A stretch of 64,000 nt of DNA, taken from positions 131,139 to 195,138 of the forward strand of contig LCGL01000001.1 in the NCBI GenBank assembly GCA_000999715.1, written 5' to 3'. Positions 43,041 through 64,000 of this stretch are shown here, in pieces. Position 1 is the stretch's first letter; each line of letters begins with the position of its first letter. Origin of the DNA: Candidatus Falkowbacteria bacterium GW2011_GWF2_43_32. GTDB taxonomy: Bacteria; Patescibacteriota; Patescibacteriia; Patescibacteriales; UBA12465. The notes beneath the pieces are model-generated. The model ran no database searches and was not told the origin of the DNA. It was given only the letters and a program-made list of their open reading frames with translations. Made by a program: the position numbers and the translations under genes.

Positions 43041-43059
43041 TTATAAATAATAAAATAAT

Positions 43060-43635
43060 TTAAGTTTCATTCTCATTTGCCACAAACTTTTTAAAATTTT
43101 CTATATCCTGCTCAGATCCTAATATGTGTATTTGTTCTGGATTTCTGACTTTAATTTGGATGCCTTCTTTAGTTACAGTAGAGCTTTCTACACTTGCATC
43201 GTATTTGTATATACGGGCACCTTCTGGCGAAAAAGAAGGATTATTGTAGCTTCTATATTCCTTATCATAAATTACTTTTTCCTCAGTGCTATCTTCTGGT
43301 TTAGGCATTATTAAAAGAGATTTAATATTTAAAAGCACGTTATTAATAACATCTCCATAAACACCTTGTATAGGGGAATATGAAAAATATGTACCAAACA
43401 TATTATCTCTAAACTTTTCTATTTTATTAGAGCTTGCATGATAAACAATATCTCTTACTTTACTGTCTGGAAAAATAGTATCTAAATATTCAGAATACTG
43501 TTCTTTTGTTCCAATTTCTGCAAGTTCTGGATTTTGCTCAAATGCAAAATCTACCCCTTCTTTAATTTGAGGTTTTTCAATTTTATTTTCTCTTTTTTCT
43601 GCATTCTGCGAAGCATTGTTAAGAAATTTTTCCAT
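43060..43635 (-). CDS. Hypothetical protein (island cassette)
   Basis: The protein is 191 aa. It is AT-rich and has no secure motif. Confidence 0.55.
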   Translation of the reverse strand: MEKFLNNASQNAEKRENKIEKPQIKEGVDFAFEQNPELAEIGTKEQYSEYLDTIFPDSKVRDIVYHASSNKIEKFRDNMFGTYFSYSPIQGVYGDVINNVLLNIKSLLIMPKPEDSTEEKVIYDKEYRSYNNPSFSPEGARIYKYDASVESSTVTKEGIQIKVRNPEQIHILGSEQDIENFKKFVANENET

Positions 43636-43726
43636 ATTTTACATTTACCTTAATATTAGCATTGCTCGTTCCAAAGTTCAATTCTCCCTACTAAAAACAG
43701 CCCCTATTTCAGGGCTATTTACAAAC

Positions 43727-43949
43727 TGCGGAGAGGCGGGGATTATCGCGCTCGCTTTTTGCCGTAATGCAAAAAGCTCACTTGTCCAGAGTTGGCGTCC
43801 GGATTGCCATTCAGGGCAATCCGTCCGACGCTCGTCCGCTCGTTCCGGCTTCCGCCCTCACTCGCGTCTCGCTGCCAACTAGTTCGAATCCCTTTCGTCT
43901 TTTACGCATACAAAAATACAACCCAAAAGGGTTGTATTTTTGTATGCGG
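43727..43949 (-). repeat. Non-coding island module, copy 2, starting with tRNA-fragment copy F and ending in a 19-bp hairpin that abuts copy G
   Basis: It has the same 53-nt and 69-nt end blocks as 39822-39973, but a 101-nt middle section instead of 30 nt. The hairpin pairs GCATACAAAAATACAACCC (43906-43924) with 43929-43947. Confidence 0.8.
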
Positions 43950-43963
43950 AGAGGCGGGGATTT
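43945..43963 (-). repeat. tRNA-Ser 3'-end fragment, copy G
   Basis: It reads tgcggagaggcggggattt, with 17 nt identical to the intact tRNA end. Confidence 0.8.
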
Positions 43964-44119
43964 CCGCCTCGGGTTGCCTTAGCGGCAACCCTCGTTGTCC
44001 TGGGCGGACCCGCTAAGTGCTCCTTAAGGTCGCGCTTATCGTCGCTCGTTCTCTCGTCCTCATTCCATTCGGACTCGAGTCTCGCTCGCCGCCTGTTCTC
44101 ATCCCCGCCTTCTCAGCTT

Positions 44120-47501: not shown

Positions 47502-48851
47502 TTATTTTATAATCTCCACGAGATCGGCCAAATTTTTGATTTTTAATAACTTCAAGCGACCGCCTTTCACGGCAACATTGGGAATAATTGCGGTCGTGAA
47601 TCCCAGCCGTTCCGCTTCCTGAAGGCGCTGTTCCAATTTAAAAACATTTCTGACTTCCGCGCCCAAGCCCACTTCGCCCAGAACCAAAGTCTGTCGATTA
47701 AAATTCTTGTTCAAATAAGAAGAAATAATCGCCGCGCAAGCGGCCAAGTCCAAAGCCGGATCGCTGATTTTCAAACCGCCCACCACATTCAAAATAATAT
47801 CCTGACTGGTCAAATTTATCTTGGTGCGTTTGGTAATTACCGCACTCAAAACCTGAAGCCGATTAAGATCATAGCCGCTGGTTTTTCTTTGCGGATAACC
47901 GAAAACCGTCTTGGTCGCCAAAGCCTGCAAATCGGCCAGAAAAGGACGCGTTCCTTCCATCACGCAACCGATAACCGACCCGGAAATATTTTCTTGATCG
48001 GCTTCCACAAAAACCAGGCTCGGATTTTTTACCTCTTTAAAACCCTGACCGGTCATTTCCAGCACGCCGAGTTCGTTCACCGAACCGAAACGATTTTTCG
48101 TCGTCCGCAAAAGACAATAATTATTGTTGGTTTCGTTTTCCAGATATAAAACCGTGTCCACGATGTGCTCCAAAGATTTCGGGCCGGCCACCGTTCCGTC
48201 TTTGGTGATGTGCCCGATCAGAAAAACGGCAATATTGTTTTCCTTGGCCAGCTCCAAAAACTTGACGGCCGTCGCCCGAATTTGCGCAATATTGCCCGGT
48301 TCGGACGGCACCAGAGCGGAATAAACGGTTTGGATGGAATCAACGATCAAAATCGCCGGTTTTAATTTTAAGGCCGCGGCCACGATTTTTTCCGCATTGG
48401 TTTCGGAAATGAATTTCAAATTATCCAAAGAGCAACCCAAGCGATCCAAACGAGCTTTAACCTGAACGGCCGATTCTTCGCCGCTGACATAAATAGTCGC
48501 ATAATCCCGGCCGACCGCGCCGGCAATCTGCGCCACTAAAGTTGATTTGCCGATACCCGGTTCGCCGCTCAATAAAACCAAAGAACCCGGTACCAAGCCG
48601 CCGCCCAACACCCGGTCAATTTCTCCGATATTCGTTTTCAACCGCATTAAAACAACGGCCGGAATAGTCTTTAAATCGATTACTTCAGCGCCGCCCAGCT
48701 TTTTGACGGCGGCGTTTTTCTCTGTCCGACTGTCCGTGGTTTGTTCTTTCAAGGTTCCCCAGGAACCGCACTCCGAACAACGCCCACTCCATTTAGGGAA
48801 TTGGGCGTCGCAATTGGCGCAAACAAAAATTGTCTTAATATTATTGGCCAT
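47502..48851 (-). CDS. radA: DNA repair protein RadA/Sms
   Basis: The start MANNIKTIFVCANCDAQFPKWSGRCSECGSWGT at 48851 opens with the zinc finger. The Walker A motif is GEPGIGKST, a KNRFG motif is present, and a Lon-like C-terminal domain follows. The longer track ORF to 48938 is rejected. Confidence 0.9.
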   Translation of the reverse strand: MANNIKTIFVCANCDAQFPKWSGRCSECGSWGTLKEQTTDSRTEKNAAVKKLGGAEVIDLKTIPAVVLMRLKTNIGEIDRVLGGGLVPGSLVLLSGEPGIGKSTLVAQIAGAVGRDYATIYVSGEESAVQVKARLDRLGCSLDNLKFISETNAEKIVAAALKLKPAILIVDSIQTVYSALVPSEPGNIAQIRATAVKFLELAKENNIAVFLIGHITKDGTVAGPKSLEHIVDTVLYLENETNNNYCLLRTTKNRFGSVNELGVLEMTGQGFKEVKNPSLVFVEADQENISGSVIGCVMEGTRPFLADLQALATKTVFGYPQRKTSGYDLNRLQVLSAVITKRTKINLTSQDIILNVVGGLKISDPALDLAACAAIISSYLNKNFNRQTLVLGEVGLGAEVRNVFKLEQRLQEAERLGFTTAIIPNVAVKGGRLKLLKIKNLADLVEIIK

Positions 48852-48873
48852 GTCGGTAATTATCTTCGCTTCC

Positions 48874-49491
48874 CTATTTTTCCCAATAAACCTCGTCCGC
48901 CAACCATTCGTCGTCCTCCAAAACAAAACGCAAATCAATCGTTTGAAAATAAGACGTGCCGCCGTTGATCTCTCCCGTGCTCTCGCGCCGTTCGGTGGCG
49001 ACGATTACTTGAGCGGTGCCGGAATTTTCATCAAAACTCTTCGCTTCCGCGGTCAGCGCCCGTGTCGTGATACCGTAATATGAGCCGTCATTTTTGGCCT
49101 GGCTCTTGAGCGTGGCGACATAAGTGTCCACCCAGGTCGCCAAATCATCGGTCATAAAAATTTTCAAATCAATAAAATTGCCGTAAGCGGATTGATTGGA
49201 AAAAGAGCCGAAGCGTTCCGCGAAAGACATGGCCAATTTTTCCAAATCGGCGGCATTGAATTTATGGGCTTTCTCTTGAGAAATATCGTATTCTTGACGA
49301 TTAAGCGGCTTATCGCTCGGCGTCGTCGTGGCCGGCACGGCGGACGGCAGCTGCGCCGTCGTGGCCGCGGGCAAAGTCTCCGCCGACGGCGTCGTTTCTT
49401 TCTTTAAAAAGCCGAAATAAACAATCAGCAAGATAAGGGCCAGACCAAGCAAGATGATTAAAATTCCCAATGTTTTGCGGTTGTTTTGCAT
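48874..49491 (-). CDS. Membrane-anchored protein of unknown function, downstream of the VirB4-like gene
   Basis: The protein is 205 aa with N-terminal TM segment TLGILIILLGLALILLIVYFGF followed by a Thr/Pro/Ala linker. Confidence 0.55.
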   Translation of the reverse strand: MQNNRKTLGILIILLGLALILLIVYFGFLKKETTPSAETLPAATTAQLPSAVPATTTPSDKPLNRQEYDISQEKAHKFNAADLEKLAMSFAERFGSFSNQSAYGNFIDLKIFMTDDLATWVDTYVATLKSQAKNDGSYYGITTRALTAEAKSFDENSGTAQVIVATERRESTGEINGGTSYFQTIDLRFVLEDDEWLADEVYWEK

Positions 49492-49527
49492 ACTTTTATA
49501 TTAAATATTGCGTTTATCGATATCGTC

Positions 49528-51426
49528 TTAGGCCGCTTCTTCCCGCTGGCTTTCTTCAAATTCCTTTTTCGCTTCTTCCAATTCTAACAATTGCCGCGGA
49601 TCGGAAGTAATCAATTGATCTTCGGTATAGGAAGCGACCACTTTCATCGCCACATGTTTATTGCCGGCGAAAAAAATGCCCTCGCCGATTCCGCATTCCA
49701 ACAACAAGTATTTTTCTCCTTCCGTCAGCAAGAAAGTTTTCTGAATCAGGTCAATCGCCGCCGGCGATTGCTTCAACAAAATCTGCAAAGAGGAGTTGGT
49801 GACAATCGCTTGGCCGTAAGGCGAAGTCAAAAAGTCGTTGACGTCCTGCGTGATGGTGGTGACGCCCAAATAGTATTTGCGGCAACGTTTAACCAGCGCA
49901 AAAATGAATTTGGCGCTGTCTTCGTGTTGCATCATCCACCAAGCTTCGTCAATAACCAGGATGCGTTTTTTCATTTCGCTTCTGACCACATTCCAAATAT
50001 AATTGACGATGGTGTAAATGGCAATCGGTCGCAATTCGTCTTCCAAATCCCGCACCGAAAAACAAACCAATTGATTGCTCATGGCCACGTTAGTTTGATT
50101 ATTGAGCAAACCGGCGAAAGTTCCCTCCGTATATTTTCGCAAACGCAAAGCCAAATCCGCGCCACCCTCCATGCCGTCCAAAATTTGTTCAAAATCCGAC
50201 ATAATCGGCGCTTCAATCTTGGTCAAATCGGAATCCGGCGTGATGTCTTTCTTGGCATAAGTTTCCAACAACGCCCGATCGACGATGGAATCTTCGTCAT
50301 AACTCAACTTGCCGAGCATCAACCTGACCAAGCCCTTGAGGGTAATGACGGCACTGCGAATAATGTCTTTCGGCTTGGCCTCTCCGCCGATAGAGCGCGG
50401 CAAATCGAAAGGATTGATTTTATTTTCCGAAGACAAAGAAATATTGATGTAAGTGCCGCCGACCGCTTCCGCCAAATGCTTGTATTCATATTCCGGATCA
50501 ATGACAATCACGTCGGTGCCGAGCATCAAAGAACGCAAAATTTCCAATTTAATGGCATAACTTTTGCCGGCGCCGGAAGTGGCGAAAACGACCGAATTGG
50601 CGTTCTGAAGAGAAAAGCGATCAAAAAGAATCAAACTATTATTGTGACGATTGATGCCGTATAAAATGCCCCGATCGCTGGTCAATTCGCTGGAGATGAA
50701 CGGAAAAGACGAGGCAATCGGCGAAGAATTCATGTTAAAAGTGATATACAATTCATCGTCGCCCAAAGGCAAAGTAGAATTGAAACCTTGTTCCGATTGA
50801 TAATAAACCCGGCGAGAGTAAACCAGGCGCGAACCCAAAATATCTTCCACCGAATCGGACAGACGATCCAGTTCCTCCAGATTTTCCGAATACAAAGTAA
50901 TATACAAAGCGAATTGAAAAAATTTCTCCGTTCCTTGTGTCAGGGCGTCGCGCAAATATTCAATGTCGCGCAAAGCCGTTTCCCGCAAAGGATCGCGAGC
51001 GGCGCCTTTTTCCGCGTCGCTGACAATCTGCGCCTCCAAAGTACCGACTTTGTTTTTCAGTTGTTTTAAAATAATGGCACTCTTGACCGGATAAAAAAAC
51101 ATGGAAACGTCAAAAGTGGAATTCAAATTGATAATCGGCGCGAACCAACCGACGGAAATATAGCGCGGATAGGAAATCACGAATATCGTGCGCAAAAACT
51201 GATTGCCCAAACGAAGGAAATTAGATTCCACTTTCAAGCTGGCCGGAGCGATAACATCGCGTACCGACAGAATGCCGCGACGGAAAGCCTTCTCTTCTTC
51301 AATCACCTCGCGCGTCAATTCCGGATTTTCCTCGATCAAAGGCCCGCCGGCCGGTTTGGGAACGAGAGTAATCGGCGTTTGTAAAGTGATTTTATTCGGT
51401 TGTTCTTCCTTGTTGAAATTAACCAT
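49528..51426 (-). CDS. VirB4/TraE-like type IV secretion ATPase (Gram-positive type)
   Basis: The protein is 632 aa. The Walker A motif is FATSGAGKSYAIK and the Walker B motif is RILVIDEAWWMM. The N-terminal region FLRTIFVISYPRYISVGWF is typical of VirB4-family proteins. Confidence 0.7.
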   Translation of the reverse strand: MVNFNKEEQPNKITLQTPITLVPKPAGGPLIEENPELTREVIEEEKAFRRGILSVRDVIAPASLKVESNFLRLGNQFLRTIFVISYPRYISVGWFAPIINLNSTFDVSMFFYPVKSAIILKQLKNKVGTLEAQIVSDAEKGAARDPLRETALRDIEYLRDALTQGTEKFFQFALYITLYSENLEELDRLSDSVEDILGSRLVYSRRVYYQSEQGFNSTLPLGDDELYITFNMNSSPIASSFPFISSELTSDRGILYGINRHNNSLILFDRFSLQNANSVVFATSGAGKSYAIKLEILRSLMLGTDVIVIDPEYEYKHLAEAVGGTYINISLSSENKINPFDLPRSIGGEAKPKDIIRSAVITLKGLVRLMLGKLSYDEDSIVDRALLETYAKKDITPDSDLTKIEAPIMSDFEQILDGMEGGADLALRLRKYTEGTFAGLLNNQTNVAMSNQLVCFSVRDLEDELRPIAIYTIVNYIWNVVRSEMKKRILVIDEAWWMMQHEDSAKFIFALVKRCRKYYLGVTTITQDVNDFLTSPYGQAIVTNSSLQILLKQSPAAIDLIQKTFLLTEGEKYLLLECGIGEGIFFAGNKHVAMKVVASYTEDQLITSDPRQLLELEEAKKEFEESQREEAA

Positions 51427-51432
51427 ATATAT

Positions 51433-52110
51433 TTATCTTTCCACTCTGATTTTATCCAAGTCCGCCAAATTTTGATTCTTGGCCGTTTCCGGATTGTAAG
51501 TCTTATAGTATAACTCGATCAAACTTTGCGTGTCCAAGCGCGCCGTTGCCACGCCCATGGATTCCATGCCGCCCGCGACGCTGTCAATACGCCTGTCCAA
51601 CATTTCCTGATATTTTTGAAAAGTTTTTTCTTTTAATTTGATAATCGTCGCCGGTCGCAGCGCTTCGGAAAAAAGATTAAAGAAACTCTTATGCTTGTCG
51701 GACAAAGGATTGTAAGGCACGATGACATAAAACCGTTTGTTCATGATTTTACCCAAAGAAGTCAGCTCTTTGATGTATTCGATATAATCGGCGGTCTGCA
51801 CTTTCAACAATTTGTTGATTTGTTCTTTTTCTTTAACCCGCAAATATTCCAAATAATTGTCTATATCCAATTCACGCGATTGAATGACTATTTGCAAAGT
51901 GAAACCCAGATTGTTCAAGAAACGAACATAGGAATCAATGACCGCATTTTGTTCGTCTTCGCTCTTCAAAGAAAAGTTAATGCTGGATACCAGAAGCACG
52001 GCGCGCAAAGTGCCGTCCTTCATAACCACCGTATTGTCTTTAATCTCCGCAATATCCAAATATTGCTGGGTGGACGAGCTTATTTTATTTTTGGTCTGTT
52101 TGTTGGCCAT
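51433..52110 (-). CDS. Hypothetical protein of the T4SS-like cluster
   Basis: The protein is 225 aa and lies between the PrgI-like and VirB4-like genes with 3- and 6-nt gaps. The N-terminus YLDIAEIKDNTVVMKDGTLRAVLLVSSINFSLKSEDEQ weakly resembles VirB4 N-domains. Confidence 0.5.
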   Translation of the reverse strand: MANKQTKNKISSSTQQYLDIAEIKDNTVVMKDGTLRAVLLVSSINFSLKSEDEQNAVIDSYVRFLNNLGFTLQIVIQSRELDIDNYLEYLRVKEKEQINKLLKVQTADYIEYIKELTSLGKIMNKRFYVIVPYNPLSDKHKSFFNLFSEALRPATIIKLKEKTFQKYQEMLDRRIDSVAGGMESMGVATARLDTQSLIELYYKTYNPETAKNQNLADLDKIRVER

Positions 52111-52113
52111 ATA

Positions 52114-52533
52114 TTATTCGCCTTTATATCTTCCTTTAGTGTCCACAATCAGCGCCAATTCCGCCAATCGCGAAGTCTTATATTCTTTTTTAGTCTCCGG
52201 TTCATAACCGGGCTTGATGATATCCAACTTCTCTTCCTGTTCTATGGCCACCAACCGATTATTCCAAACGCGCAGACCCGGACGACGAACGGTTTGAATG
52301 GCATTTAAGACAAACAAATGAAAGGGCTGGCTATTCACTTTAACGAAAGAAAAAACGGCGGCGATTATCGTTATTATAATGGCAATTACCAAAAACAAAG
52401 AAAAATCAAACAAGCGATAACTGATGGCCATAATAATGGCGGCGGCCAGAATAATCAAAAATTGCCGAGTGGTCAACGGACCGATAATCTTGCTTTCCAC
52501 ATCCAGAAATTGTGGCACGGTGAACTGTTGCAT
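52114..52533 (-). CDS. PrgI-family (VirB3-like) small membrane protein
   Basis: The protein is 139 aa. It starts MQQFTVPQFLDVESKIIGPLTTRQFLIILAAAIIMAI and has two TM helices, matching the PrgI-family pattern. Confidence 0.6.
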   Translation of the reverse strand: MQQFTVPQFLDVESKIIGPLTTRQFLIILAAAIIMAISYRLFDFSLFLVIAIIITIIAAVFSFVKVNSQPFHLFVLNAIQTVRRPGLRVWNNRLVAIEQEEKLDIIKPGYEPETKKEYKTSRLAELALIVDTKGRYKGE

Positions 52534-52547
52534 AGATTAAACAAATG

Positions 52548-54365
52548 TTAAAACACTAATTTTCCGTTCAAACTGACGACGGCTTCTATTTCTTCCCGGG
52601 TTAAATAATCTTGTCCGGATTGACGACGCTTCTCTATCGCTTCTTTCAAGGAAATCCCGGCGACAATCGCTTCTTGCCCGGAACGCAGATATAAACGATT
52701 GACCGGGCTTTGTCGCCAAGCGCGAACACCTGCCACCATTTTATCATACCCGTCTTTTTCCAACAATTTTATTTTAGCCAAAACTTTAGCGGTCATCTCC
52801 GCCGGTGTCTGTCCTAAATGACGAAAATTAACCACATCCAAAAATTGCAATTCTTCTATCGGTCCCATTACTTTAGGCACCGCTTTGATATCCTGCAGGC
52901 GCGGACGAGAAGCCGAGACGACGGGAGCGGGACGAGCAAGCGTCGTTTTCGGAACGACCGGAGCGGACGGTGCCGGCGGAGCGGATTGAGCGACCGATGA
53001 GGCAACCGGAATTTTAGACGCAACCGGCACTTTCGGAACAAGCGGCGTTGGCGGAACGGATGAAGCGGATTGAGCAAACGGAGTTTTCGGAGCGATCGGC
53101 GCAGATTGAGTCAGCGTCGTTTTTGGAGCGACCGGAGCGGACGGGACAGCCGGAATTTTCGAAACAGACGAAGCCGTCGGAGGAGTCGGAACGGTCGGAG
53201 TTTTAGCGACCAACGGCGTGGCCGCTATTTTTGCGGCGGTCAATTTTAATTTCTTTTTGGATGTAAACAGTTTGGCCCAAAAACCAAGCGGTTTCGACGG
53301 TTTTACTTTAGCCTTCGTCGGCGTTACCGGAGACGATGGCAGAATTTTTTTAAGCGGTTGGAGCGTTTGTCCTTGCGGAATCGGTCGGAAAGATCTCGTC
53401 GGCACAGCCGCCGCCAGCGGCGAAACTGCCGGGGCTGTCGGAGCTGTCGGAGTTACGGAAACTGTGGCGGCCGTCAGCACGGTTTTATCGGCGGGGGTCG
53501 CCGCAGTCGGCCGAAGCGGAACCGGAGGTTTAACCGGCGCAACGGATTTGGGCTGAACCGATTGAACTGGCTTAGCGGCAGTCTGTCCGGAAGACGGCAA
53601 AATCAATTGTTCTTCCGGCGACGGCAAATCCAATTGTTTTTCTGCGGCCGGCAATTCATGTTTGGTGTCCAATTTTTCCGGCACTTTTATGCGACCATCG
53701 GCGATAACTTGTTTAAGATTATATTCTTCCGCCGAACCCCGGCTCGTAGCCGAGATTTTTTCCGCCCCGGCGATAATTTTATCCAAACGACCCGCCGGAA
53801 CAACCGGCCGAGACGCGGCGGCGGCATCGATTTCCAAACTTTTGAATTGATGACTGTCGCAAATTTTCAATACCCGATTAATTTCCGCGTCGCTTAAACT
53901 CAAGCCGCCGTTAACGACCGGCTTGCTTAAAGACGCGCGCGTATCAATCTTACTGCGTACACCGCGCAAATAAATCGCCAAAATATTTTTAAAACGACCC
54001 AATAAATCCGCACTCGGCAAAACCAAACCCGCCTCCTTAATCAATAACCCTGCATCTTTATCCAAATCCCAGGCACGTTTGTCGGCCGCCAAGCCAAGGT
54101 GATCGGCCGCCACCATAAAAACTTTTTCTTTCAATTCACGAGTCAGATCGGCCGCTTTTTCCGGCGCCAATAAAGCTTCGCCGCTGAAATAAGCCGGCAA
54201 ATCCTGAAGAGCCATTTCCTTAATCATCACTTTCATGACAACCATCGCCAAATCAACGTGATAGCGGTTTTCCAATTCCGTCAAAGAGGCCATCACCGAT
54301 GCCGAAGAAACCTTGTCCCGCAAGTCTTTGGACAGGCTATTAAATTTTTGCAAGTAATCAAACAT
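52548..54365 (-). CDS. Large protein with a central Pro/Ala/Thr/Val-rich low-complexity region, function unknown
   Basis: The protein is 605 aa. The central ~250 aa consist of degenerate repeats such as APVAPKTTLTQSAPIAPKTPFAQSAS. It is the first gene of the T4SS-like block. Confidence 0.6.
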   Translation of the reverse strand: MFDYLQKFNSLSKDLRDKVSSASVMASLTELENRYHVDLAMVVMKVMIKEMALQDLPAYFSGEALLAPEKAADLTRELKEKVFMVAADHLGLAADKRAWDLDKDAGLLIKEAGLVLPSADLLGRFKNILAIYLRGVRSKIDTRASLSKPVVNGGLSLSDAEINRVLKICDSHQFKSLEIDAAAASRPVVPAGRLDKIIAGAEKISATSRGSAEEYNLKQVIADGRIKVPEKLDTKHELPAAEKQLDLPSPEEQLILPSSGQTAAKPVQSVQPKSVAPVKPPVPLRPTAATPADKTVLTAATVSVTPTAPTAPAVSPLAAAVPTRSFRPIPQGQTLQPLKKILPSSPVTPTKAKVKPSKPLGFWAKLFTSKKKLKLTAAKIAATPLVAKTPTVPTPPTASSVSKIPAVPSAPVAPKTTLTQSAPIAPKTPFAQSASSVPPTPLVPKVPVASKIPVASSVAQSAPPAPSAPVVPKTTLARPAPVVSASRPRLQDIKAVPKVMGPIEELQFLDVVNFRHLGQTPAEMTAKVLAKIKLLEKDGYDKMVAGVRAWRQSPVNRLYLRSGQEAIVAGISLKEAIEKRRQSGQDYLTREEIEAVVSLNGKLVF

Positions 54366-54509: not shown

Positions 54510-54541
54510 ACTTTATCTTTTCTTTATCTCTCTTTTGCTAT
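54510..54541. repeat. 32-nt intergenic motif, copy 1 (actttatcttttctttatctcTcttttgctat)
   Basis: It is 31/32 identical to 56279-56310. It ends 11 nt before the tRNA-like gene, and its 3' end together with tatt forms TGCTATATT, an extended -10 element. Confidence 0.85.
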
Positions 54542-54552
54542 ATTGGAGAGAC

Positions 54553-54636
54553 GGAAGGTGTTGCGCCAAGGTCGGCGTCACTGACTGATAATCAAGTGAT
54601 TCTTTCGAGAATGAGGTTCGAATCCTCCACCTTCCG
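54553..54636 (+). tRNA. Non-canonical tRNA-like gene with an 8-bp acceptor, 4-bp T stem, long variable arm, anticodon loop CUGAUAA (GAU) and discriminator G
   Basis: I folded it by hand. The acceptor pairs GGAAGGTG (54553-60) with CACCTTCC (54628-35). The D arm is GCGCC-AAGGTC-GGCGT. The anticodon stem pairs CACTGA with TCAAGTG and has one bulged A. The loop CTGATAA is at 54585-91. The V arm is ATTCT-TTCG-AGAAT, the T arm is GAGG-TTCGAAT-CCTC, and G is at 54636. Confidence 0.6.
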
Positions 54637-54712
54637 CCGGTATTGCTTTTTCTTTTCAAATTTGCTATCATATTAGCAGTTATCAGTCAGTGATTCTCGT
54701 TATCCGAAATCT

Positions 54713-54750
54713 AAAAACACCTCTCCTCACGGAGCGGTGTTTTTGTTTTT
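54713..54750. terminator. Bidirectional terminator
   Basis: ACACC-T-CTCC, a TCAC loop and GGAG-C-GGTGT form the hairpin. It is flanked by A5 and TTTTTGTTTTT. Confidence 0.6.
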
Positions 54751-54757
54751 AAAACCG

Positions 54758-55701
54758 TTATAAAGTCGTAATCGGCCGGCTTTGAGTGATATAAAATTTA
54801 TTTTTCACATAAACCCATTCAATATCGCAAGGAAATTTATAATGTTTCTCGATACCGGCGCAAATTTTCGCCAAGGCCACGATTTGCTTGCCGTTTAATT
54901 TCTGTCTTTCTCCCTGGGCTTTTGGGATCTTAACCCATTTCGTGCCGCCGCCCGTGCCTTTAACTATTTGGCGTGCTTGCGCCGCGATATTAATGTCAAT
55001 CAAAGAATAACCGCGCTTAGAAACCACGTAAGAATCCGGGGTAACGGAGCCGGAAACAATCGCTTCGCCCAAACCGTAGCCGGCTTCAATAATCATTTGA
55101 TTTCTATCCTGCGTTACCGGATGAACGGTAAAGGCGATACCGGAAATTTCCGCCTCCACCATTTTTTGCACCACCACCGCCACGCTCACGGCCGCTTTCA
55201 ACAGTTTCTTTTCATGACGATAGAAAATCGCTCGCGGCGTAAATAAAGACGACCAACATTTTTTTACATTAATCAATAAAGTTTTTTCGGTCGTATTCAA
55301 ATAGGTTTCCAATTCTCCGGCCCAGGAAGCCGTGGACGAATCTTCGGCCGTAGCGCTGGAGCGAATGGCGACGAAAGGCGCTTTCAATTTTTTAAATTCC
55401 GCCATGATATCTTTGGCCAAATCCGTCGGCATCGGCGCCTTGGCAATCAAATCGCGAATAACATTGGAGTAACGATCCACCAAATTAATATCTTTGTAAT
55501 TGATTTTCCTTAACTGCGCCGCCACTTCTTGCGTCAAATCCGTTTCCGTTAAAAACCGATCGGCACCGAAATTTTTGCCGCTGTCATTTCGCCGAGCGAG
55601 GCTCCTTTACCGCCGGCTTCAAAAACGGATTTTTTGCTGATTTTAGAGAAAGATTTGATAAAAGTTAACGATTGTTTTTTTGGTTTATTTTTGTCTTTCA
55701 T
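54758..55701 (-). pseudogene. PPDK_N (PEP/pyruvate-binding, ATP-grasp) domain gene interrupted by a frameshift in a T5 run
   Basis: The N-terminal fragment 55701-55549 reads MKDKNKPKK..FEAGGKGASLGEMTAAKISVPIGF* and ends in GGTTTTTAA. One extra T would read through as GFLTETDLTQEVAAQLRK.. into ORF 54758-55537 (VAIRSSATAEDS, ISGIAFTVHP). Confidence 0.7.
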
Positions 55702-55723
55702 TTTATTAAAAATTGCTATTTTC

Positions 55724-56275
55724 CTATTGTAACAACCCGCGCGCCCGGCAATAACTGGATTTGTACTTCTCGGGATGATAAGCTTTCATCCTTTTTATTT
55801 TACAACAAAGACGAAATTTAGCAATTTCGTCTTTTAATTTCCGTAAATCAACCTTTTGATCGTAACCGAGACAAATAAGATCCGGACGATATTTTTTCAG
55901 CACCGACCAACGATTTTTTAAGCCTCCCAAAACGGCGCGACCATGAAAATTTGACCGACCGTCAACGACCGGACGAGTAATCGTGATATTTGTCTTCATT
56001 TTTTTTAACGCCGCCGTCACCTTCCCGGTCCGCGTCTTTTCATCTTCCTGCGCCGCATACCCTTTACTCCGCCAAACATTTTTATCGCGGGCGACAATAA
56101 CGATTAACTCTATTCGATATTTTGTTTTTTCTTTTTTGACCGTGTCGTTATTGACCGACTTGCTCTTAACCGAAGAACGCTTCATCATTTTCTCGCCAAA
56201 AAACCGCGCCTGCCGGAAATAATCTAAATGGCCCGGATGCAAATTATCAAATGTGCCGAAAACCATTACTTTCAT
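55724..56275 (-). CDS. Cytidylyltransferase-like nucleotidyltransferase (HxGH family)
   Basis: The protein is 183 aa. MKVMVFGTFDNLHPGHLDYF is the (T/H)xGH signature, and a Lys-rich insertion follows it. Confidence 0.55.
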   Translation of the reverse strand: MKVMVFGTFDNLHPGHLDYFRQARFFGEKMMKRSSVKSKSVNNDTVKKEKTKYRIELIVIVARDKNVWRSKGYAAQEDEKTRTGKVTAALKKMKTNITITRPVVDGRSNFHGRAVLGGLKNRWSVLKKYRPDLICLGYDQKVDLRKLKDEIAKFRLCCKIKRMKAYHPEKYKSSYCRARGLLQ

Positions 56276-56278
56276 AGG

Positions 56279-56310
56279 ACTTTATCTTTTCTTTATCTCG
56301 CTTTTGCTAT
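56279..56310. repeat. 32-nt intergenic motif, copy 2 (actttatcttttctttatctcGcttttgctat)
   Basis: It is 31/32 identical to 54510-54541. On the minus strand it ends 3 nt before the ATG of 55724-56275. Confidence 0.85.
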
Positions 56311-56318
56311 GGGGGTTT

Positions 56319-57479
56319 TTATTTAGCCCTGTTAATTATCTTCTTCAGCTCCGCCACCTTATCCAATTTCTCCCAGCGAAATTCCGGCCGGCCGAAATGT
56401 CCATAAGCCGCCGTCTTTAAAAACACCGGCTTCTTCAATTCCAAATGATCGATAATCGCTTTCGGACGGAAATCAAAAACTTTTCCGATGGCCGCCAAAA
56501 TATCTTCTTCCGCGTACTTATTGGTGCCGAAAGTATCGATATAAATACCAACCGGTTTAGCGACGCCGATGGCATAAGCGACCTGCAATTCACACCTGTT
56601 CGCCAAACCCGCCGCCACCACATTTTTCGCCGCATAACGCGCCATATAAGCGCCGGAACGATCCACTTTGGAAGAATCTTTGCCGGAAAAACAGCCGCCG
56701 CCGTGTCGGGCCATGCCACCGTAAGTGTCAACGATAATTTTGCGACCGGTCAAGCCCGTATCCGCCGCCGGTCCGCCATAAGTGAAAGCGCCGGTGGAAT
56801 TAATGAATACTTTTGTTTTCTTGTCCATTAACTTGCCCAAAATCGGTTTAATCACTTTCGCTAAAATATCGGCCCGCACTTTGGTCAATTTAACTTTTTC
56901 ACTGTGACAAGCGGCCACCACCACCGTTTCCACGCGCTGGGCGATGCCGTCATGATATTCCACCGTCACTTGGCTCTTGCCGTCCGGACGAAGATAAGGC
57001 AAAACTTTTTTCTTGCGCACTGCCGCCAACTTCGCCGTCAATTTATGGGCCAACACTATCGGTAAAGGCATCAATTCTTTAGTCTCGTCCGTCGCATAGC
57101 CATACATCAAACCCTGATCGCCGGCGCCCTGTTCTTTAAATTCTCCCGTGCCTTCATCCACTCCCTGGGCGATTTCCGCACTCTGAGCATGCAAAGACGA
57201 CATGATACCGACACTATCGCAATCAAAACCGGATTCCGCGCCATTATAGCCGATGCTTTTCAAAATTTTGCGCACAGTGTCGTCAACTTGGATATATTCT
57301 TTCGTGCGCACTTCGCCGCCGACGACAATCATGCCGTTAGTGGCAAACGATTCCACGGCCGCATGACTCTCCGGATCTTTTTTTAACATTTCATCCAAAA
57401 TGCCGTCTGAAATTTGATCGCAGACTTTGTCCGGATGTCCTTCGGTCACCGATTCCGAAGTCATTAATTTGATGTTCAT
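56319..57479 (-). CDS. metK: S-adenosylmethionine synthase
   Basis: GHPDKVCDQISD, GAGDQG and GGGAFSGKD-type motifs (here GGGCFSGKD) are present. The ATG at 57479 (MNIKLMTSESV) is preferred over the TTG-initiated track start at 57503. Confidence 0.95.
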   Translation of the reverse strand: MNIKLMTSESVTEGHPDKVCDQISDGILDEMLKKDPESHAAVESFATNGMIVVGGEVRTKEYIQVDDTVRKILKSIGYNGAESGFDCDSVGIMSSLHAQSAEIAQGVDEGTGEFKEQGAGDQGLMYGYATDETKELMPLPIVLAHKLTAKLAAVRKKKVLPYLRPDGKSQVTVEYHDGIAQRVETVVVAACHSEKVKLTKVRADILAKVIKPILGKLMDKKTKVFINSTGAFTYGGPAADTGLTGRKIIVDTYGGMARHGGGCFSGKDSSKVDRSGAYMARYAAKNVVAAGLANRCELQVAYAIGVAKPVGIYIDTFGTNKYAEEDILAAIGKVFDFRPKAIIDHLELKKPVFLKTAAYGHFGRPEFRWEKLDKVAELKKIINRAK

Positions 57480-59913: not shown

Positions 59914-60681
59914 TTAAATTAATCCCCATTTAAACAAAGTGGCTTGTTCTATTTTTCTAAAAACCAACTGTTCAAATAATATGCCCACCAAAGCAATCAT
60001 TATTATACCCGAAATAACTTGATCAAATCTGAAGGCCCATTGCGACATCCAAATATATTTGCCCAGGCCGCCGGCCGTCACAACCAACATCTCCGCGCCG
60101 ATAAGCGACCGCCAAGCAGAGCCAAAGCCGACACGAATACCGCTGAGTATTTGCGGCAAAGCCCCCGGTATTATCACTTTCATTATAGTTTGAAATTTAT
60201 TTAATTCCAAATTACGCGCTACCAACAACCAATTCCGATTGACGCCTTGGACACCGCCGATAACACTATAAATCATACGCATAAAACTGGAAATAAAAAT
60301 AACTATCCAAATAGTTTGACGCGTAAATCCGAAAAATAAAATAATCAGCGGCAACCAAGCTAATGACGGCACCAAATTAATCGCCGATAAAAACGGTAAA
60401 AATATCTTACGAAAGTTGGAATTAATTCCGACAAATACTCCCAGTATCAAAGCAAAAAATACAGATACAAAAAAAGATGGAAAAATATTTAAAAAACTGT
60501 TTAACAATAATTTAATCAAGCTACCATTTTTAATCAACTTTAAAAAAGTGTTTAATGTCTCGTTAGGCGAAGACAGCAACCAAGTGGGGACTATTTGAGT
60601 AATATTCAAAGTATACCAAACAATTAAAACAACTAAAAATAACGACCAACCCAAAACAATTTCTTTAATTTTCGGAACCAT
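59914..60681 (-). CDS. ABC transporter permease (NitT/TauT-type)
   Basis: The protein is 255 aa with multiple TM helices and an EAA-like loop, FGSAWRSLIGAEM. Confidence 0.75.
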   Translation of the reverse strand: MVPKIKEIVLGWSLFLVVLIVWYTLNITQIVPTWLLSSPNETLNTFLKLIKNGSLIKLLLNSFLNIFPSFFVSVFFALILGVFVGINSNFRKIFLPFLSAINLVPSLAWLPLIILFFGFTRQTIWIVIFISSFMRMIYSVIGGVQGVNRNWLLVARNLELNKFQTIMKVIIPGALPQILSGIRVGFGSAWRSLIGAEMLVVTAGGLGKYIWMSQWAFRFDQVISGIIMIALVGILFEQLVFRKIEQATLFKWGLI

Positions 60682-61705
60682 ATATTTCTTCTTGCGCCAC
60701 CATTAATCTGTTTTCGAATCTTAAATCATAAACATCCTGAATCGATAGCTCCCGTTCTAACATTCCCATTTCTTTGGCTTTTTTAGCCAAATTCATCGTA
60801 ACATCCGGATCTTGCCAAATCATATTAAGCACTTCTCTGTTATCCCATTGGCTAACGATTTCTTCGGCCGCACGACTCACCGCACCCCCGCTTCCCTTCT
60901 TGATGTGATCGGATAGTAATTTTGCCGCTTCAGGCGCATTATCATGAATTAAACGATGAGCATCAATCAAGGCTTCTAAAAAGGCGGCGGTCTCCCCTTC
61001 GTGCTGATCAAGAAACTCTGCGTTAACTACGATAGAATTGCGTGGTAAAAATTCTTGATCATACCCTTTTCTATCCCATTCCGGCAAAACCACGACGCCA
61101 GACTCAAGTAACTGCTCCGTGTCTTGTTTAGATACAACTACAGCATCAACCGCTTTTTTATCCATCAGCGCGGTAGCTTGATATGCCCTTTCAATATCAA
61201 CAAAATTTATTTTGCTTACATCAATATTTTCTTTACCCATAACCGATCTGAAAAAAAGATCATTAATTCCACTGGCGTTAACTAAAATATTTTTGCCGTA
61301 AAAATTCGTAAGATTATCTAAATTTTCGCCTGGTCTGATCAACACAAAACTCGGTGAAGCGGCAGAAGCGGCAATAATTCTGATCGGCACGCCCTTGGCC
61401 ATGGCTGTCATGAAATTAGTAAAACTACCGATACCTAAATCAACTTGATTAGCGGCTAAAGCCAACATAACTTCTCGACCGCTTTTAAGCGGAACCATCT
61501 GCAACGTTAAACCGTGCGCTTGGAAATATCCTTTCTCATAAGCGACTATAATTGAAGCATTAGTAACGCTTTCCGTATTATATCCAACTCTAATCGTAAT
61601 GGGACTAGAATCATTCTCTTCCAATAATCCAGAAAAAATAAAATAGCCGCCAATCAATAATACGATTATTCCGACAAATAAACCTGATTTTTTAATAATT
61701 TTCAT
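60665..61705 (-). CDS. ABC transporter substrate-binding protein (NMT1/THI5-like)
   Basis: The protein is 346 aa with an N-terminal anchor and the pattern IRVGYN..VDLGIGSF..IRIIA. It sits between the ATPase and permease genes. Confidence 0.65.
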   Translation of the reverse strand: MKIIKKSGLFVGIIVLLIGGYFIFSGLLEENDSSPITIRVGYNTESVTNASIIVAYEKGYFQAHGLTLQMVPLKSGREVMLALAANQVDLGIGSFTNFMTAMAKGVPIRIIAASAASPSFVLIRPGENLDNLTNFYGKNILVNASGINDLFFRSVMGKENIDVSKINFVDIERAYQATALMDKKAVDAVVVSKQDTEQLLESGVVVLPEWDRKGYDQEFLPRNSIVVNAEFLDQHEGETAAFLEALIDAHRLIHDNAPEAAKLLSDHIKKGSGGAVSRAAEEIVSQWDNREVLNMIWQDPDVTMNLAKKAKEMGMLERELSIQDVYDLRFENRLMVAQEEIYGSEN

Positions 61706-61760
61706 AAATTAATTATTTCTAACTATGGATTAAACGTTCTGAATATTCCCAAAAACTAAG

Positions 61761-62564
61761 TTATATATCTTTGAAAATTAAATTATTTTTAAAATCATGA
61801 TTAAAATTATTCTTAAATTCCTTGGCAATTTCCTTTTCAATATCCTTAGCAATTTTCATAAACTTACTGTCATATTGAGGGCGCGGTCGAGGTAAACTTA
61901 TCTTATAAATTTTTTTAATCCGAGCCGGCGAGCTTGAGAGAAGATAAATAGTATCCGCCAAGACAATGGCCTCATTAATACTATGGGTTACAAAAACAAT
62001 TGTTTTTTTGGTCTTTTGCCAAATCTTCTCTAAGTTTGCCCTCATATGCTTACGGCTCTGAGAATCCAATGCCGCAAAAGGTTCGTCCATCAGCAAAACC
62101 CTCGGATTAGAAATTAAAGCTCGCGCGATAGCTATCCTTTGTTTCATCCCCCCGGAAAGATTATGAGTATACCAATTCTTAAACTTTGTTAATCCTACCA
62201 TTTTTAAATATTTGTCCGCCAAGACTTTTTTTTGCCGTAGCGATAGCCCGCTTTTTTCTAAACCAAAAATGATATTACTATAAACCGTCATCCAAGGAAA
62301 TAAAATATAATCCTGAAAAATCAAAATCCGGTCTGTTCCCGGCTTGTTAATCTCTTTATCATCTAATATAATCCGACCGGTCGTGGGCTTTAAAAACCCG
62401 GCCACGAGACGTAACAAGACAGTTTTGCCGCAACCGCTCGGGCCTAAAACGCAAGCCAACTCACCATTATGTAAAGAAATATTAATGTTTTTTATCGCCG
62501 GAAATTCATTCTTTCCGCCAAAGTTTTTACTGACATTTTCTAACTTCAAAATTTCCTTACTCAT
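61761..62564 (-). CDS. ABC transporter ATP-binding protein (NitT/TauT-type)
   Basis: The Walker A motif is GPSGCGKT, the signature is LSGGMKQRIAIARAL and the Walker B motif is LLMDEPFAALD. Confidence 0.9.
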   Translation of the reverse strand: MSKEILKLENVSKNFGGKNEFPAIKNINISLHNGELACVLGPSGCGKTVLLRLVAGFLKPTTGRIILDDKEINKPGTDRILIFQDYILFPWMTVYSNIIFGLEKSGLSLRQKKVLADKYLKMVGLTKFKNWYTHNLSGGMKQRIAIARALISNPRVLLMDEPFAALDSQSRKHMRANLEKIWQKTKKTIVFVTHSINEAIVLADTIYLLSSSPARIKKIYKISLPRPRPQYDSKFMKIAKDIEKEIAKEFKNNFNHDFKNNLIFKDI

Positions 62565-62613
62565 ACATTATGGCGAAAATTATCGATTTGCCTGGACAGC
62601 TATTTTCAAAGAT

Positions 62614-63549
62614 TTATTTTTTAACATCGGATTTTTGCGCCTGTTTTAACTCCGCCGCCTTCAAACGACTGATTTCCTGCTTAATCGCTTTATACTCCAG
62701 GCTGGAAGGGGGGTAGTTTTTCAAACTGGTCTCCAATTGAATCAAGGGAGAAACGGAATCGGTCTGAGAGGCTAAAAACTGTTGATTAAAGGCGGATATC
62801 GATTGCGGGGTTGTTTCTTCCAATAAAGCCTTCGCGGCGGCTATCTTTTTATTTTCAAGCACCGGATCTAAAACTCCTTTTCTAAAAATATACAATTTTC
62901 CGTCTATCTTTATCGGCGGTTCTTCGTCAAACCCTTCCGGCAAATCCGAGGGCAAATTAAGAAAATCATAAATATTAAATAGAGTCATCAACTTTTTATA
63001 ATCTTCGGGAGAAATATCCTTATTTCCTTTGAAAGAACCGAGATATTGAGCTTTTATCAGATTATCAACTTTATCCAGACCCACTTTGGATACATAATTC
63101 TTGACCCAATCCTTCACATATTTTATTTCGTAGTCGGCAGTGATTATTTCATTATTTTCCAACAGAGCTTTCTTTAATTCTTCTTTAAAAACATTGCGAT
63201 CGTCAATTACTAGTATGCTCAAAATTTTATCGACTATCTTGGCCAGAATATTATAGTCTTCAAGCTTAAACTGAAAACAAAAATTATCTTTAATCAAGCC
63301 GATGACTTCCTTGTCGCCCAGTGCCGGCAAACAAACAAACTTTAATTTCAAAACCTCCGATTGATAAAATCTCAATAGCTTTGGCTGAGCTCTAAGCTCA
63401 TTGATGTTTCTGTCTATAGCTCGACTTAAGAGACGCGAAAGCTCCAATGCCCTGAAGCGATCGTCATTAGTCACAATATAATCACTTATTTCCGGCAACA
63501 AATCGGCATAACTCTGCTCCAATATTCTTTTTGATTTATTGGTATCCAT
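62614..63549 (-). CDS. Hypothetical protein
   Basis: The protein is 311 aa with no recognised motif. Confidence 0.55.
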   Translation of the reverse strand: MDTNKSKRILEQSYADLLPEISDYIVTNDDRFRALELSRLLSRAIDRNINELRAQPKLLRFYQSEVLKLKFVCLPALGDKEVIGLIKDNFCFQFKLEDYNILAKIVDKILSILVIDDRNVFKEELKKALLENNEIITADYEIKYVKDWVKNYVSKVGLDKVDNLIKAQYLGSFKGNKDISPEDYKKLMTLFNIYDFLNLPSDLPEGFDEEPPIKIDGKLYIFRKGVLDPVLENKKIAAAKALLEETTPQSISAFNQQFLASQTDSVSPLIQLETSLKNYPPSSLEYKAIKQEISRLKAAELKQAQKSDVKK

Positions 63550-63552
63550 AAA

Positions 63553-64000
63553 TTAATTGACGCCTAAATCGTTAACAACATGACTATAACGCGGCTCTAT
63601 GTCTCCCTTGCCTTTTCCGGCTAAATTTCCAAGGCGGGTTTCCAAGACATCAAGGAGAGACTTGTTGCTATCTTTATTAATTTTACTAAATTCGGTCTCT
63701 AGTTTGGGATTGGCCTTGATAGCCTCATAACAGTATTTAGCGGCACTTTCATTCATAGTATTCATTCGACCGTGGCCATGAGCGTTATCCATGCTCTGTA
63801 ATTTAAGAACTCCGCCGACATTAAGATGAAACTTACCTTCCTTATCGTGATAACCGTAAGCCAAGCGATTGTCTTTGCGGATGCACTCTTCTTGCTGTCG
63901 CTTTCCGCTTTCCGTCGTCATGATATCATTATGCTCTAAATCGGTTGTTTCGCGCCATTGACCGTTTTCCATCACATACGCAGAAGTGGCCGCCCAATGA
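63553..64000 (-). CDS. Hypothetical protein, possibly truncated by the right window edge
   Basis: The track ORF 63553-63975 starts at a GTG, and the frame stays open upstream to base 64000 (..HWAATSAYV-MENGQW). The true start may therefore lie outside the window. Confidence 0.45.
   Translation of the reverse strand, partial: HWAATSAYVMENGQWRETTDLEHNDIMTTESGKRQQEECIRKDNRLAYGYHDKEGKFHLNVGGVLKLQSMDNAHGHGRMNTMNESAAKYCYEAIKANPKLETEFSKINKDSNKSLLDVLETRLGNLAGKGKGDIEPRYSHVVNDLGVN

Follow-up and report, generated by a model that had tools for sequence, protein, structure and literature searches.

A stretch of 64,000 nucleotides from Candidatus Falkowbacteria bacterium GW2011_GWF2_43_32 (contig LCGL01000001.1), referred to below as the window, carries at 54511-54750 a locus that is probably a two-gene RNA cassette, in which a tRNA-like RNA (RNA1) is followed on the same strand by a small RNA (sRNA), RNA2, that would serve as its dedicated inhibitor, the two forming a closed and co-evolving pair. 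An earlier note on this DNA had described the tRNA-like gene, with eight base pairs in the acceptor stem and four in the T stem (8/4), and the promoter in front of it. The putative second promoter and the predicted sRNA antisense to the anticodon arm, both absent from that note, are the key feature of the locus. Since the complement of the anticodon arm is preceded by a putative promoter and followed by a terminator, the locus would encode two RNAs rather than one. We infer the transcription of both RNAs, their pairing in vivo and its consequences from the sequence.

The connection between the two genes is a perfect 14-nt inverted repeat (TCACTGACTGATAA at 54578-54591 and TTATCAGTCAGTGA at 54680-54693), the arms of which lie 88 bases apart. 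The complement of the RNA2 seed in RNA1 runs from the last base of the D stem, through the 5' strand of the anticodon stem, to the end of the anticodon loop, giving a duplex of 14 Watson-Crick pairs, or of 16 bp when terminal G.U pairs are counted. No second target of the seed was found within the window at up to two mismatches in 13 nt. In cofolding, the predicted heterodimer is 4-15 kcal/mol more stable than the monomers.

The complementarity is kept in relatives. Look-ups guided by the neighbouring proteins located cassettes of the window type in a total of four independent lineages, all of them Candidatus Falkowbacteria of the Candidate Phyla Radiation (CPR), namely the window itself, L003, L005 (= L201) and L217, which were aligned four-way as A6. 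Compared with the window, the neighbouring 605-aa protein is 94% identical in L003 (DNA 97.1% identical) and 46% identical in L005, and the nadD-like protein of L217 is 64% identical. In the long-range helix between RNA1 and RNA2 (A6 columns 27-40 with 135-148) all 56 cells are paired, that is 14 pairs in each of the four lineages. Three of these pairs have changed on both sides, including the one at anticodon-loop position 38 (A-U to C-G in L217), a covariation that is not explicable by the stem of the tRNA itself. Furthermore, the intermolecular helix of L217 is perfect (16 Watson-Crick pairs) while its intramolecular anticodon stem carries an A.C mismatch; pairing with RNA2 seems to be guarded by selection more tightly than the decoding fitness of RNA1.

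A weak nhmmer signal was the clue to eight further cassettes of a second, generic type (in L012, L025, L028, L032, L039, L219 and twice in L038), which bring the family to twelve. Among ten non-redundant cassettes, the cognate RNA1 and RNA2 share complementarity of 12-20 bp, with a mean of 16.0 and at constant relative positions, as against 9.6 bp on average and never more than 13 in non-cognate combinations, and not one of 7419 derangements reached the cognate sum. Within the helices G.U pairs outnumber A.C mismatches by 16 to 3, an asymmetry which indicates that selection acts on the RNA of this strand and not on the DNA. Complementarity was counted in ungapped runs; whole-sequence RNAduplex gave meaningless long duplexes.

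RNA1 folds as an 8/4 cloverleaf, which is both the minimum free energy (MFE) and the centroid structure in RNAfold (-30.6 kcal/mol, z = -3.0), none of 200 shuffled sequences being as stable. The hand fold of the earlier note proved right in its details, down to the extended -10 element TGCTATATT at 54536-54544. The acceptor stem, GGAAGGTG/CACCTTCC, has 8 bp, and the anticodon stem (CACTGA/TCA-A-GTG) has 6 bp with a bulged A and carries the loop CTGATAA. The D stem is long (5 bp, two compensatory changes) and its loop of 6 nt (AAGGUC, GAGGUU or GCGGCC) differs from the tetraloop of selenocysteine tRNA (tRNA-Sec). ARAGORN calls a tRNA-Ile(gat) at 54553-54638. In a relaxed Rfam scan the best family, kept as the clan match, is tRNA-Sec (RF01852), at 36.6 bits (E = 1.2e-5) for the window and 42.1 bits for RNA1 of L005, both short of its gathering score of 47, and the general tRNA model of Rfam (RF00005) gives no match at its gathering score, the two ordinary tRNAs of the window reaching 60-62 bits. 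We rejected an assignment to tRNA-Sec in view of the sub-threshold score, the anticodon GAU instead of UCA and the T stem of 4 bp, and also an assignment to the canonical elongator tRNA class RF00005, whose gathering score is not reached and whose geometry is 7/5 and not 8/4.

Comparison of the four lineages confirms the cloverleaf. All but one of its 28 pairs are standard in every sequence of A6, the exception being the loop-closing pair of the anticodon stem, A.C in L217. When the seven pairs of the terminator are added, 97% of 140 cells are paired, as against 47-52% with the partners slid by 1-3 columns. Seven cloverleaf pairs have changed on both sides: the 8th of the acceptor stem, two in the D stem, three in the anticodon stem and one in the variable (V) stem. 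The acceptor branch keeps 12 of its 12 pairs (8 + 4), the V arm has 5-6 bp, a loop of 3-4 nt and one compensatory change (U-A to C-G), and the discriminator G and the anticodon GAU are present in four lineages of four. The homologues thus display compensatory changes at the two places where the earlier note had proposed to look for them, the 8th acceptor pair and the V arm, and its preference for 8/4 over 7/5 is borne out, because the 8th pair goes from G-C to A-U in L217 and a 7/5 fold would leave one mismatch, U.C or U.U, in each of the four. On this comparative evidence the 8/4 tRNA-like gene at 54553-54636 is real and conserved.

Two of the lineages depart from a tRNA in part. RNA1 of L003 (L003:2331-2414(-)) has G for A at T-loop position 58, C for U at position 60 and a G.U in place of an A-U pair in the T stem; three of the six differences between its cassette and that of the window lie within the T arm, RNA2 and the seed being unchanged. 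ARAGORN calls RNA1 neither in L003 nor in L217, the latter of which encodes a CCA end. The window type is rare. Beyond the four lineages, a synteny search of 77 GTDB species loci found no further gene of this type; ARAGORN detected an Ile-like tRNA in none of the 77, and neither of the two covariance models gave a match in the other 71 of them. Scanning metagenomes with the pattern GGAAGGTGNNGCGCNNNGGTNNGCG gave chance matches in GC-rich DNA, L201 alone being genuine among the 121 matches listed.

Between the end of the RNA1 promoter (P1) and the gene itself lie 8 nt, and a transcript from such an extended -10 promoter would start no more than about 2 nt from the acceptor 5' end. A T-rich box with TTTGCTATAWT stands upstream of RNA1 in all 12 cassettes. 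Motifs of the type TGnTATnAT are enriched in the window (19 observed, 8.05 expected) and are mostly located close upstream of genes. The promoter of RNA2 (P2) has a -35 element, a 17-nt spacer and an extended -10 (TG-n-TATnAT), a layout kept across the window-type lineages. RNA2 would start about 40 nt downstream of RNA1. Its predicted parts are a single-stranded seed at the 5' end, an intrinsic terminator (54713-54744) with its T run and, between the two, a small hairpin (54692-54711) in which the 5' strand repeats that of the V arm. The terminator that the earlier note had placed at 54713-54750 is present, hairpin and T run alike; it ends the downstream gene RNA2 and not the tRNA-like gene. 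Against Rfam 15, neither RNA2 nor the generic RNA1 belongs to a family, only terminator-like or sub-threshold chance matches being returned. The cassettes hold no conserved small open reading frame (ORF), and insertions and deletions between them shift the reading frame.

The generic cassettes have the same layout of T-rich box and extended -10 promoter, RNA1, promoter, antisense sRNA and terminator. Their RNA1 is 77 nt long and tRNA-shaped, with a terminal stem of 12 bp, a 5-bp T arm with the loop UUCGAnU, a small D-like hairpin with the loop CAGGU, and an anticodon-like arm whose 9-nt loop contains YUUGACA. Such predicted folds cannot be reconciled with the geometry of a tRNA or with charging in the manner of one. 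The promoter of the generic RNA2 occupies the place of P2 and is near consensus (TTGAC-17-TATAAT), and the 5' end of the sRNA is antisense to the anticodon-like arm. A second covarying contact joins the D-like loop CAGGU of RNA1 to ACCUG of RNA2; it varies between CCAGGUGG/UCAUCUGG in L038 and CCGGGUGG/CUAUUCGG in L039, and in L219 both contacts are merged into one contiguous antisense match of 27 bp. The two generic cassettes of L038 lie 1.2 kb apart. A viral scan for the generic RNA1 gave no matches, and two other nhmmer matches (L013 and L022) were set aside as terminators only. Positions of all these elements are collected in Table 1.

Table 1. Features of the cassette and of the nadD-like/metK interval in the window, and generic cassettes in other Falkowbacteria
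Feature	Position	Strand	Sequence or support
P1, putative promoter of RNA1	54511..54544	+	T-rich box CTTTATCTTTTCTTTATCTC (54511-54530), extended -10 TGCTATATT (54536-54544)
RNA1, (8/4) allo-tRNA-type tRNA-like RNA	54553..54638	+	ARAGORN, RNAfold, tRNA-Sec sub-threshold, covariation, covariance model R2
RNA1 acceptor 5' strand	54553-54560	+	
RNA1 linker	54561-54562	+	TT
RNA1 D arm	54563-54578	+	stem GCGCC/GGCGT, loop AAGGTC
RNA1 anticodon arm	54579-54598	+	loop 54585-54591, anticodon GAU 54587-54589, bulged A 54595
RNA1 V arm	54599-54612	+	ATTCT-TTCG-AGAAT
RNA1 T arm	54613-54627	+	stem GAGG/CCTC, loop TTCGAAT
RNA1 acceptor 3' strand	54628-54635	+	
RNA1 discriminator	54636	+	G
RNA1 3' CC	54637-54638	+	CC
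P2, putative promoter of RNA2	54643..54671	+	-35 TTGCTT (54643-54648), 17-nt spacer, extended -10 TGCTATCAT (54663-54671)
RNA2, predicted sRNA, ~73 nt	54678..54750	+	start predicted from the -10 position
RNA2 seed	54679..54694	+	GTTATCAGTCAGTGAT; inverted repeat I1, covariation, cognate/non-cognate comparison, cofold
Apparent second-cassette scar, nadD-like/metK interval	56277..56324	+	34-nt P1 copy fused to terminator 3' half (GGGGGTTTTTATTT)
Generic cassette	L012:6720-6950	-	
Generic cassette	L025:6700-6945	-	
Generic cassette	L028:6640-6870	-	
Generic cassette	L032:6720-6960	-	
Generic cassette	L038:215-440	-	
Generic cassette	L038:1420-1660	-	
Generic cassette	L039:~480-700	-	
Generic cassette	L219:9660-9930	-	

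A mechanism for the inhibition may be proposed from these structures. The anticodon loop is the archetypal U-turn, and C-U-G-A in RNA1 fits the YUNR motif. The 5' tail of RNA2 could dock on this loop in the style of a Sok-type antisense RNA and then displace the 3' strand of the stem, leading to a duplex of 14-16 bp. In such a duplex the anticodon of RNA1 would be hidden from the ribosome and from the synthetase; it would also be long enough to act as a substrate of RNase III, by which RNA1 would probably be cleaved, and RNA2 would represent the antidote of RNA1. Seeds drift freely while the partner follows, so that no outside sequence target is needed, and for the same reason RNA1 as effector with RNA2 as inhibitor is favoured over RNA2 as regulator with RNA1 as sponge. 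That RNA1 takes effect by way of its tRNA-like body, and that RNA2 serves as its antidote in a poison/antidote pair of type VIII-like kind or in a self-limiting regulator, can be proposed tentatively at best. Slightly more speculative still is the idea that CPR bacteria possess a hitherto unrecognised class of all-RNA modules of a tRNA-shaped effector and a co-evolving antisense antidote masking its anticodon arm. The effector in this lineage would be a genuine 8/4 allo-tRNA that joins a serine identity set to an isoleucine anticodon and could mistranslate throughout the proteome, a "tRNA toxin / anti-anticodon antitoxin".

Several points weigh against the proposal of a dedicated inhibitor. 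Where each RNA starts and where RNA1 ends are predictions from the sequence, and so is the independence of RNA2. There is no terminator between RNA1 and RNA2; transcripts from P1 may consequently run through RNA2, and the pairing could be cis-acting. The window-type lineages are just four, with the window and L003 nearly identical, and shuffle statistics on kin sequences do not amount to probabilities. Six stem positions of the complementarity would follow automatically if RNA2 were a duplicated anticodon arm, which makes the loop positions and the covariation the sole complementarity independent of such a duplication. Finally, each subtype has a conserved loop core, CUGAUA for the window type and YUUGACA for the generic one, which could mirror an outside target.

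This last point leads to an alternative we regard as improbable, in which RNA2 is a seed-type sRNA that regulates mRNAs or the genuine tRNA-Ile(GAU), and RNA1 is a stable tRNA-shaped decoy that titrates it. The classic sRNA layout of RNA2 (5' seed, hairpin and terminator) fits such a role, as do the constancy of the 7-nt loop core per subtype and an orphan RNA2 in L028 which, with an intact strong promoter, outlives a decayed RNA1; UUAUCAG, in addition, would pair with the anticodon loop in every canonical tRNA-Ile(GAU). External targets should, however, constrain the seeds, which outside the 7-nt core differ freely between species and track their own RNA1 only. The 13-nt target sequence has no second match in the window, and the generic loops (CUUGACA, with C at position 37) are unlike real anticodon loops. 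More doubtful is a working elongator tRNA, either serylated and reading AUC/AUU as Ser or an odd tRNA-Ile, for which the complementarity would be incidental or would fine-tune its level. In the window and L005 the cloverleaf is perfect, its T loop is canonical, G18G19 is present and the 7-nt loop includes U33 and A37; the SerRS-type set of RNA1 (SerRS being seryl-tRNA synthetase) also fits the genome's own tRNA-Ser, L217 encodes the CCA end, and allo-tRNAs of the same geometry are active in translation in E. coli (PMC5389517). Nevertheless, the gene is missing from the syntenic region of 77 other species and must thus be accessory rather than a housekeeping tRNA-Ile; the G58 of L003 and the loop-closing A.C of L217, both in genes rejected by ARAGORN, are unfavourable to decoding, and conservation is stricter for the pairing with RNA2 than for the anticodon stem. 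The related generic RNA1s, with a 12-bp terminal stem and a 5-bp T stem, would not be chargeable like a tRNA, and many allo-tRNA(UAU) species are themselves inactive in translation (PMC5389517).

We find just as little probability in a single RNA of about 200 nt, transcribed from P1, in which the long-range helix would be an alternative fold controlling the processing or release of the tRNA-like part. The lack of a terminator between the genes is compatible with it, and the MFE fold of the full transcript does use the long-range helix in the window, L005, L217 and L025; yet a full promoter stands exactly before the seed in every cassette, near consensus in the generic ones, and the spacer between RNA1 and the seed is free in both length (42 to 78 nt) and sequence. 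A pair devoid of function, be it a decaying tRNA pseudogene, the remnant of an att site or an inverted repeat acting at the DNA level such as an invertible segment, is very improbable. In its favour, an 88-bp segment with a promoter in it is bordered by a direct repeat (AGTGATTCT) and an inverted repeat, and the cassette moves between sites. Against this, compensatory conservation is seen between genomes whose neighbouring proteins are 46-64% identical, no recombinase or integrase was found near the cassette, no ORF preserves its frame, and the 16:3 ratio of G.U to A.C contradicts pairing at the DNA level. DNA inversion and an att remnant were rejected on this asymmetry and on the covariation, and are largely refuted.

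The nature of RNA1 is best approached through its identity elements. Those of bacterial SerRS are G1-G2-A3, a C-G second pair in the D stem, a long V arm and G73. The combination of Ser-type features (long V arm, G73) with an Ile GAU anticodon, pointed out in the earlier note, does exist, and the G1-G2-A3 start and the C-G second D-stem pair add to it. The main determinants of isoleucyl-tRNA synthetase (IleRS) are G34, A35, U36, A37 and A38, all of which are present in RNA1, so that an exclusive Ser identity is not to be assumed and a dual or ambiguous Ser/Ile identity is possible. The G58 of L003 and the A.C of L217 argue against a strict tRNA constraint. The suggestion that AUC/AUU codons would be recoded as Ser is somewhat weakened by the comparative data and looks doubtful in the L003 and L217 lineages; overall, a serylated RNA1 that misreads Ile codons appears unlikely.

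The nearest outside relatives of RNA1 are phage (8/4) tRNA-Ser genes, which the covariance model built from window-type RNA1 (R2) matches with 41-44 bits. Like RNA1 they have an acceptor of the form GGAAGGUG/CRCCUUCC-G, a linker of 2 nt, a D stem of 5 bp and the T arm GAGG-UUCGAnU-CCUC; their anticodons are those of Ser. The common acceptor, linker, D stem and T stem place RNA1 in the (8/4) tRNA-Ser / allo-tRNA group, to which it belongs structurally and, as far as the sequences tell, probably by descent. The likeness to allo-tRNAs put forward in the earlier note is thereby upheld: RNA1 has the 8/4 branch, the long V arm, G73, an anticodon stem of more than 5 bp and a non-serine anticodon, besides the matches of R2 to phage tRNA-Ser. 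In two viral contigs (L093:12375-12469 and L096:5090-5183) we also observed a 95-nt tRNA-like gene, called tRNA-Ile(gat) by ARAGORN, with an oversized anticodon region, an acceptor GGGAGGG.../...CCCCCTTCC and the same T arm as RNA1; it may be an irregular phage tRNA. To our knowledge, nobody has understood since 2017 how hosts tolerate or use allo-tRNAs, and RNA2 would be the first case known to us of an sRNA gene that serves only the anticodon arm of the tRNA-like gene beside it. If this dedicated antisense RNA does mask the anticodon while co-evolving with it, no other control device of an allo-tRNA would have been seen in nature before, and a tRNA toxin with an anti-anticodon antitoxin, if true, would give allo-tRNAs their first biological rationale.

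The (8/4) allo-tRNAs described by Mukai et al. 2017 (NAR 45:2776, PMC5389517) agree with RNA1 in the 8-bp acceptor, 4-bp T stem, long V arm, G73, 6-bp anticodon stem, non-serine anticodon and resemblance to the tRNA-Sec model; it was through such behaviour with that model that they were first found (PMC5389517). In E. coli, allo-tRNAs are harmful and can be lethal, and they cluster with toxin-antitoxin loci (PMC5389517). The differences lie in the host, which is a CPR bacterium for RNA1 and a member of the Clostridia, Proteobacteria or Acidobacteria for the (8/4) group (PMC5389517), in the D arm, with a 5-bp stem and a 6-nt loop in RNA1 and a tetraloop in allo-tRNAs, and in the covarying antisense sRNA, the text of PMC5389517 never using the words "antisense" or "complementary" and a 2020 review never "antisense". 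Mukai et al. count 35 anticodons, GAU not being named in their text. In Rfam and in the literature searched, on tRNA-like RNAs in CPR and on antisense RNAs against anticodon loops, we found no earlier description of the covarying antisense partner or of the cassette family. The CPR would be a new host phylum of allo-tRNAs.

That an antisense RNA can recognise a U-turn loop with its 5' tail is well established (PMC4485353, citing Franch et al. 1999). Hok/Sok and the plasmid copy-control RNAs (same source) resemble the cassette in having a short sRNA with a free 5' tail, a YUNR target loop and a duplex of RNase III length, and differ from it in acting on an mRNA or a replication primer and in having genes that overlap each other on opposite strands. 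The target in the cassette is a tRNA-shaped non-coding RNA, and the genes are in tandem on the same strand. Membership in the type I toxin-antitoxin systems (hok/Sok-like) was rejected, there being no conserved ORF for a toxic peptide and the insertions and deletions shifting the frame. Type VIII systems (creTA, SdsR/RyeA; PMC10767807, PMC9458426), in which both toxin and antitoxin are RNAs, resemble the cassette in consisting of two neighbouring small RNA genes, with less than 200 bp between them, and no protein; the module-like distribution of the cassette, with orphans and scars, is another likeness. Adjacency (<=200 bp) and specific pairing are present in the cassette, the toxicity of RNA1 and its neutralisation being hypothetical; if free RNA1 were harmful, RNA1/RNA2 would be a type VIII-like all-RNA toxin-antitoxin module. 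In creTA, by contrast, CreA acts through Cascade on a promoter and not by pairing with the toxin RNA, and there is no sequence similarity to the cassette.

The tRNA-like domain of transfer-messenger RNA (tmRNA), YrlA and mascRNA share with generic RNA1 the T arm, a D-like loop and a long terminal stem. Generic RNA1 scores 26.7-30.3 bits against the tmRNA and mascRNA models, below threshold, and differs from all three in lacking a tag frame, a G3:U70 pair, a Ro/Rsr context and an Rfam match at threshold; none of the three is known to have a partner antisense gene, unlike the cassette. A two-piece tmRNA was rejected, as RNA1 closes its own terminal stem and has neither G3:U70 nor a conserved tag frame, and so was membership of the YrlA / Y RNAs, for want of an Rfam match and of rsr context. 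The 3'ETS-leuZ RNA of E. coli, which Lalaouna et al. reportedly described in 2015, is said to be a sponge derived from a tRNA precursor that base-pairs with sRNA seeds. It would resemble RNA1, if the latter were a sponge, as a tRNA-associated RNA paired with sRNA seeds; it differs in being a precursor spacer and not an anticodon arm, and in buffering sRNAs with many other targets. The twelve Falkowbacteria cassettes offer a ready set of orthogonal RNA-RNA pairs with natural covariation, and indicate that CPR genomes, though small, keep autonomous non-coding RNA modules.

The proteins flanking the cassette are those of Candidatus Falkowbacteria (CPR/Patescibacteria). Among the loci L012-L083, many GTDB representative contigs bear the name "uncultured Gammaproteobacteria bacterium", evidently a placeholder of the submitter, although synteny and protein identity clearly assign them to Falkowbacteria or Patescibacteria. 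One side has a 605-aa protein without Pfam domain, PrgI, a TraC-like protein, a VirB4-like ATPase, a 205-aa protein and RadA. Genes like those of a type IV secretion system do adjoin the locus, as the earlier note had it, but the cluster (605-aa protein, PrgI, TraC-like, VirB4-like and RadA) is present in every related contig that reaches its position and is a chromosomal one that keeps its synteny among Falkowbacteria rather than an inserted element. The opposite flank holds a PPDK_N gene (54758-55732 (-)), a nadD-like gene, metK and ahcY. What had been taken for a pseudogene of a PEP (phosphoenolpyruvate)-utilizing protein is this PPDK_N gene, indeed frameshifted near codon 55 in the window but an intact 324-aa ORF in contig L001, the intergenic DNA of which is identical to the window's; the frameshift is either a strain-level pseudogene or an assembly error.

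The site of the cassette changes between genomes. In L005 and L217 its neighbours are metK and the nadD-like gene, but in the window and L003 they are the PPDK_N and 605-aa genes. In L005 and L006 the site used in the window is empty, with an intergenic region of about 100 nt. Conversely, the nadD-like/metK interval of the window holds a P1 copy with one mismatch to 54511-54541, at the same genomic position as the intact cassette of L005 and L217, and the segment at 56277-56324 is apparently the deletion scar of a second cassette. In L028, an orphan window-type RNA2 (L028:6465-6650(-)) with the seed GGGUAUCAGCCAGCGG, a strong TTGACA-17-TATAGT promoter and an intact terminator lies directly downstream of a generic cassette, and is preceded by a decayed RNA1 3' half made of the V arm, the T arm and the acceptor 3' strand. 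The cassettes of L005 and L201 are identical in 266 of 266 positions, the surrounding aligned DNA being 97.9% identical. Cassettes thus appear to be gained, lost and decaying like small autonomous modules.

Several cassettes sit between tandem paralogous genes beside the cluster (L006:1-4902, L012:4282-7925, L038:3163-7909, L219:6637-11446), whose products of 320-630 aa have only the C-terminal PEP-utilizers mobile domain and are accompanied by a stand-alone PPDK_N gene. From the start of the nadD-like gene, L222 and L223 are 99.9% identical to L005 (4361 onward) and unrelated upstream; the breakpoint falls exactly at the edge of the cassette promoter and reflects a rearrangement or a chimeric assembly. 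The 605-aa protein (cluster at 47502-54365 of the window; loci L007-L083) is conserved in Falkowbacteria and Patescibacteria, with 128 relatives, and combines invariant N- and C-terminal parts with a hypervariable proline-rich middle; the cluster is not an integrative and conjugative element. Elsewhere in the window, GC content falls from about 0.46 to 0.37-0.39 at 60000-64000 and to 0.32-0.36 at 38000-44000, and the latter stretch ends at a tRNA-Ser(GCU), which suggests a possible island.

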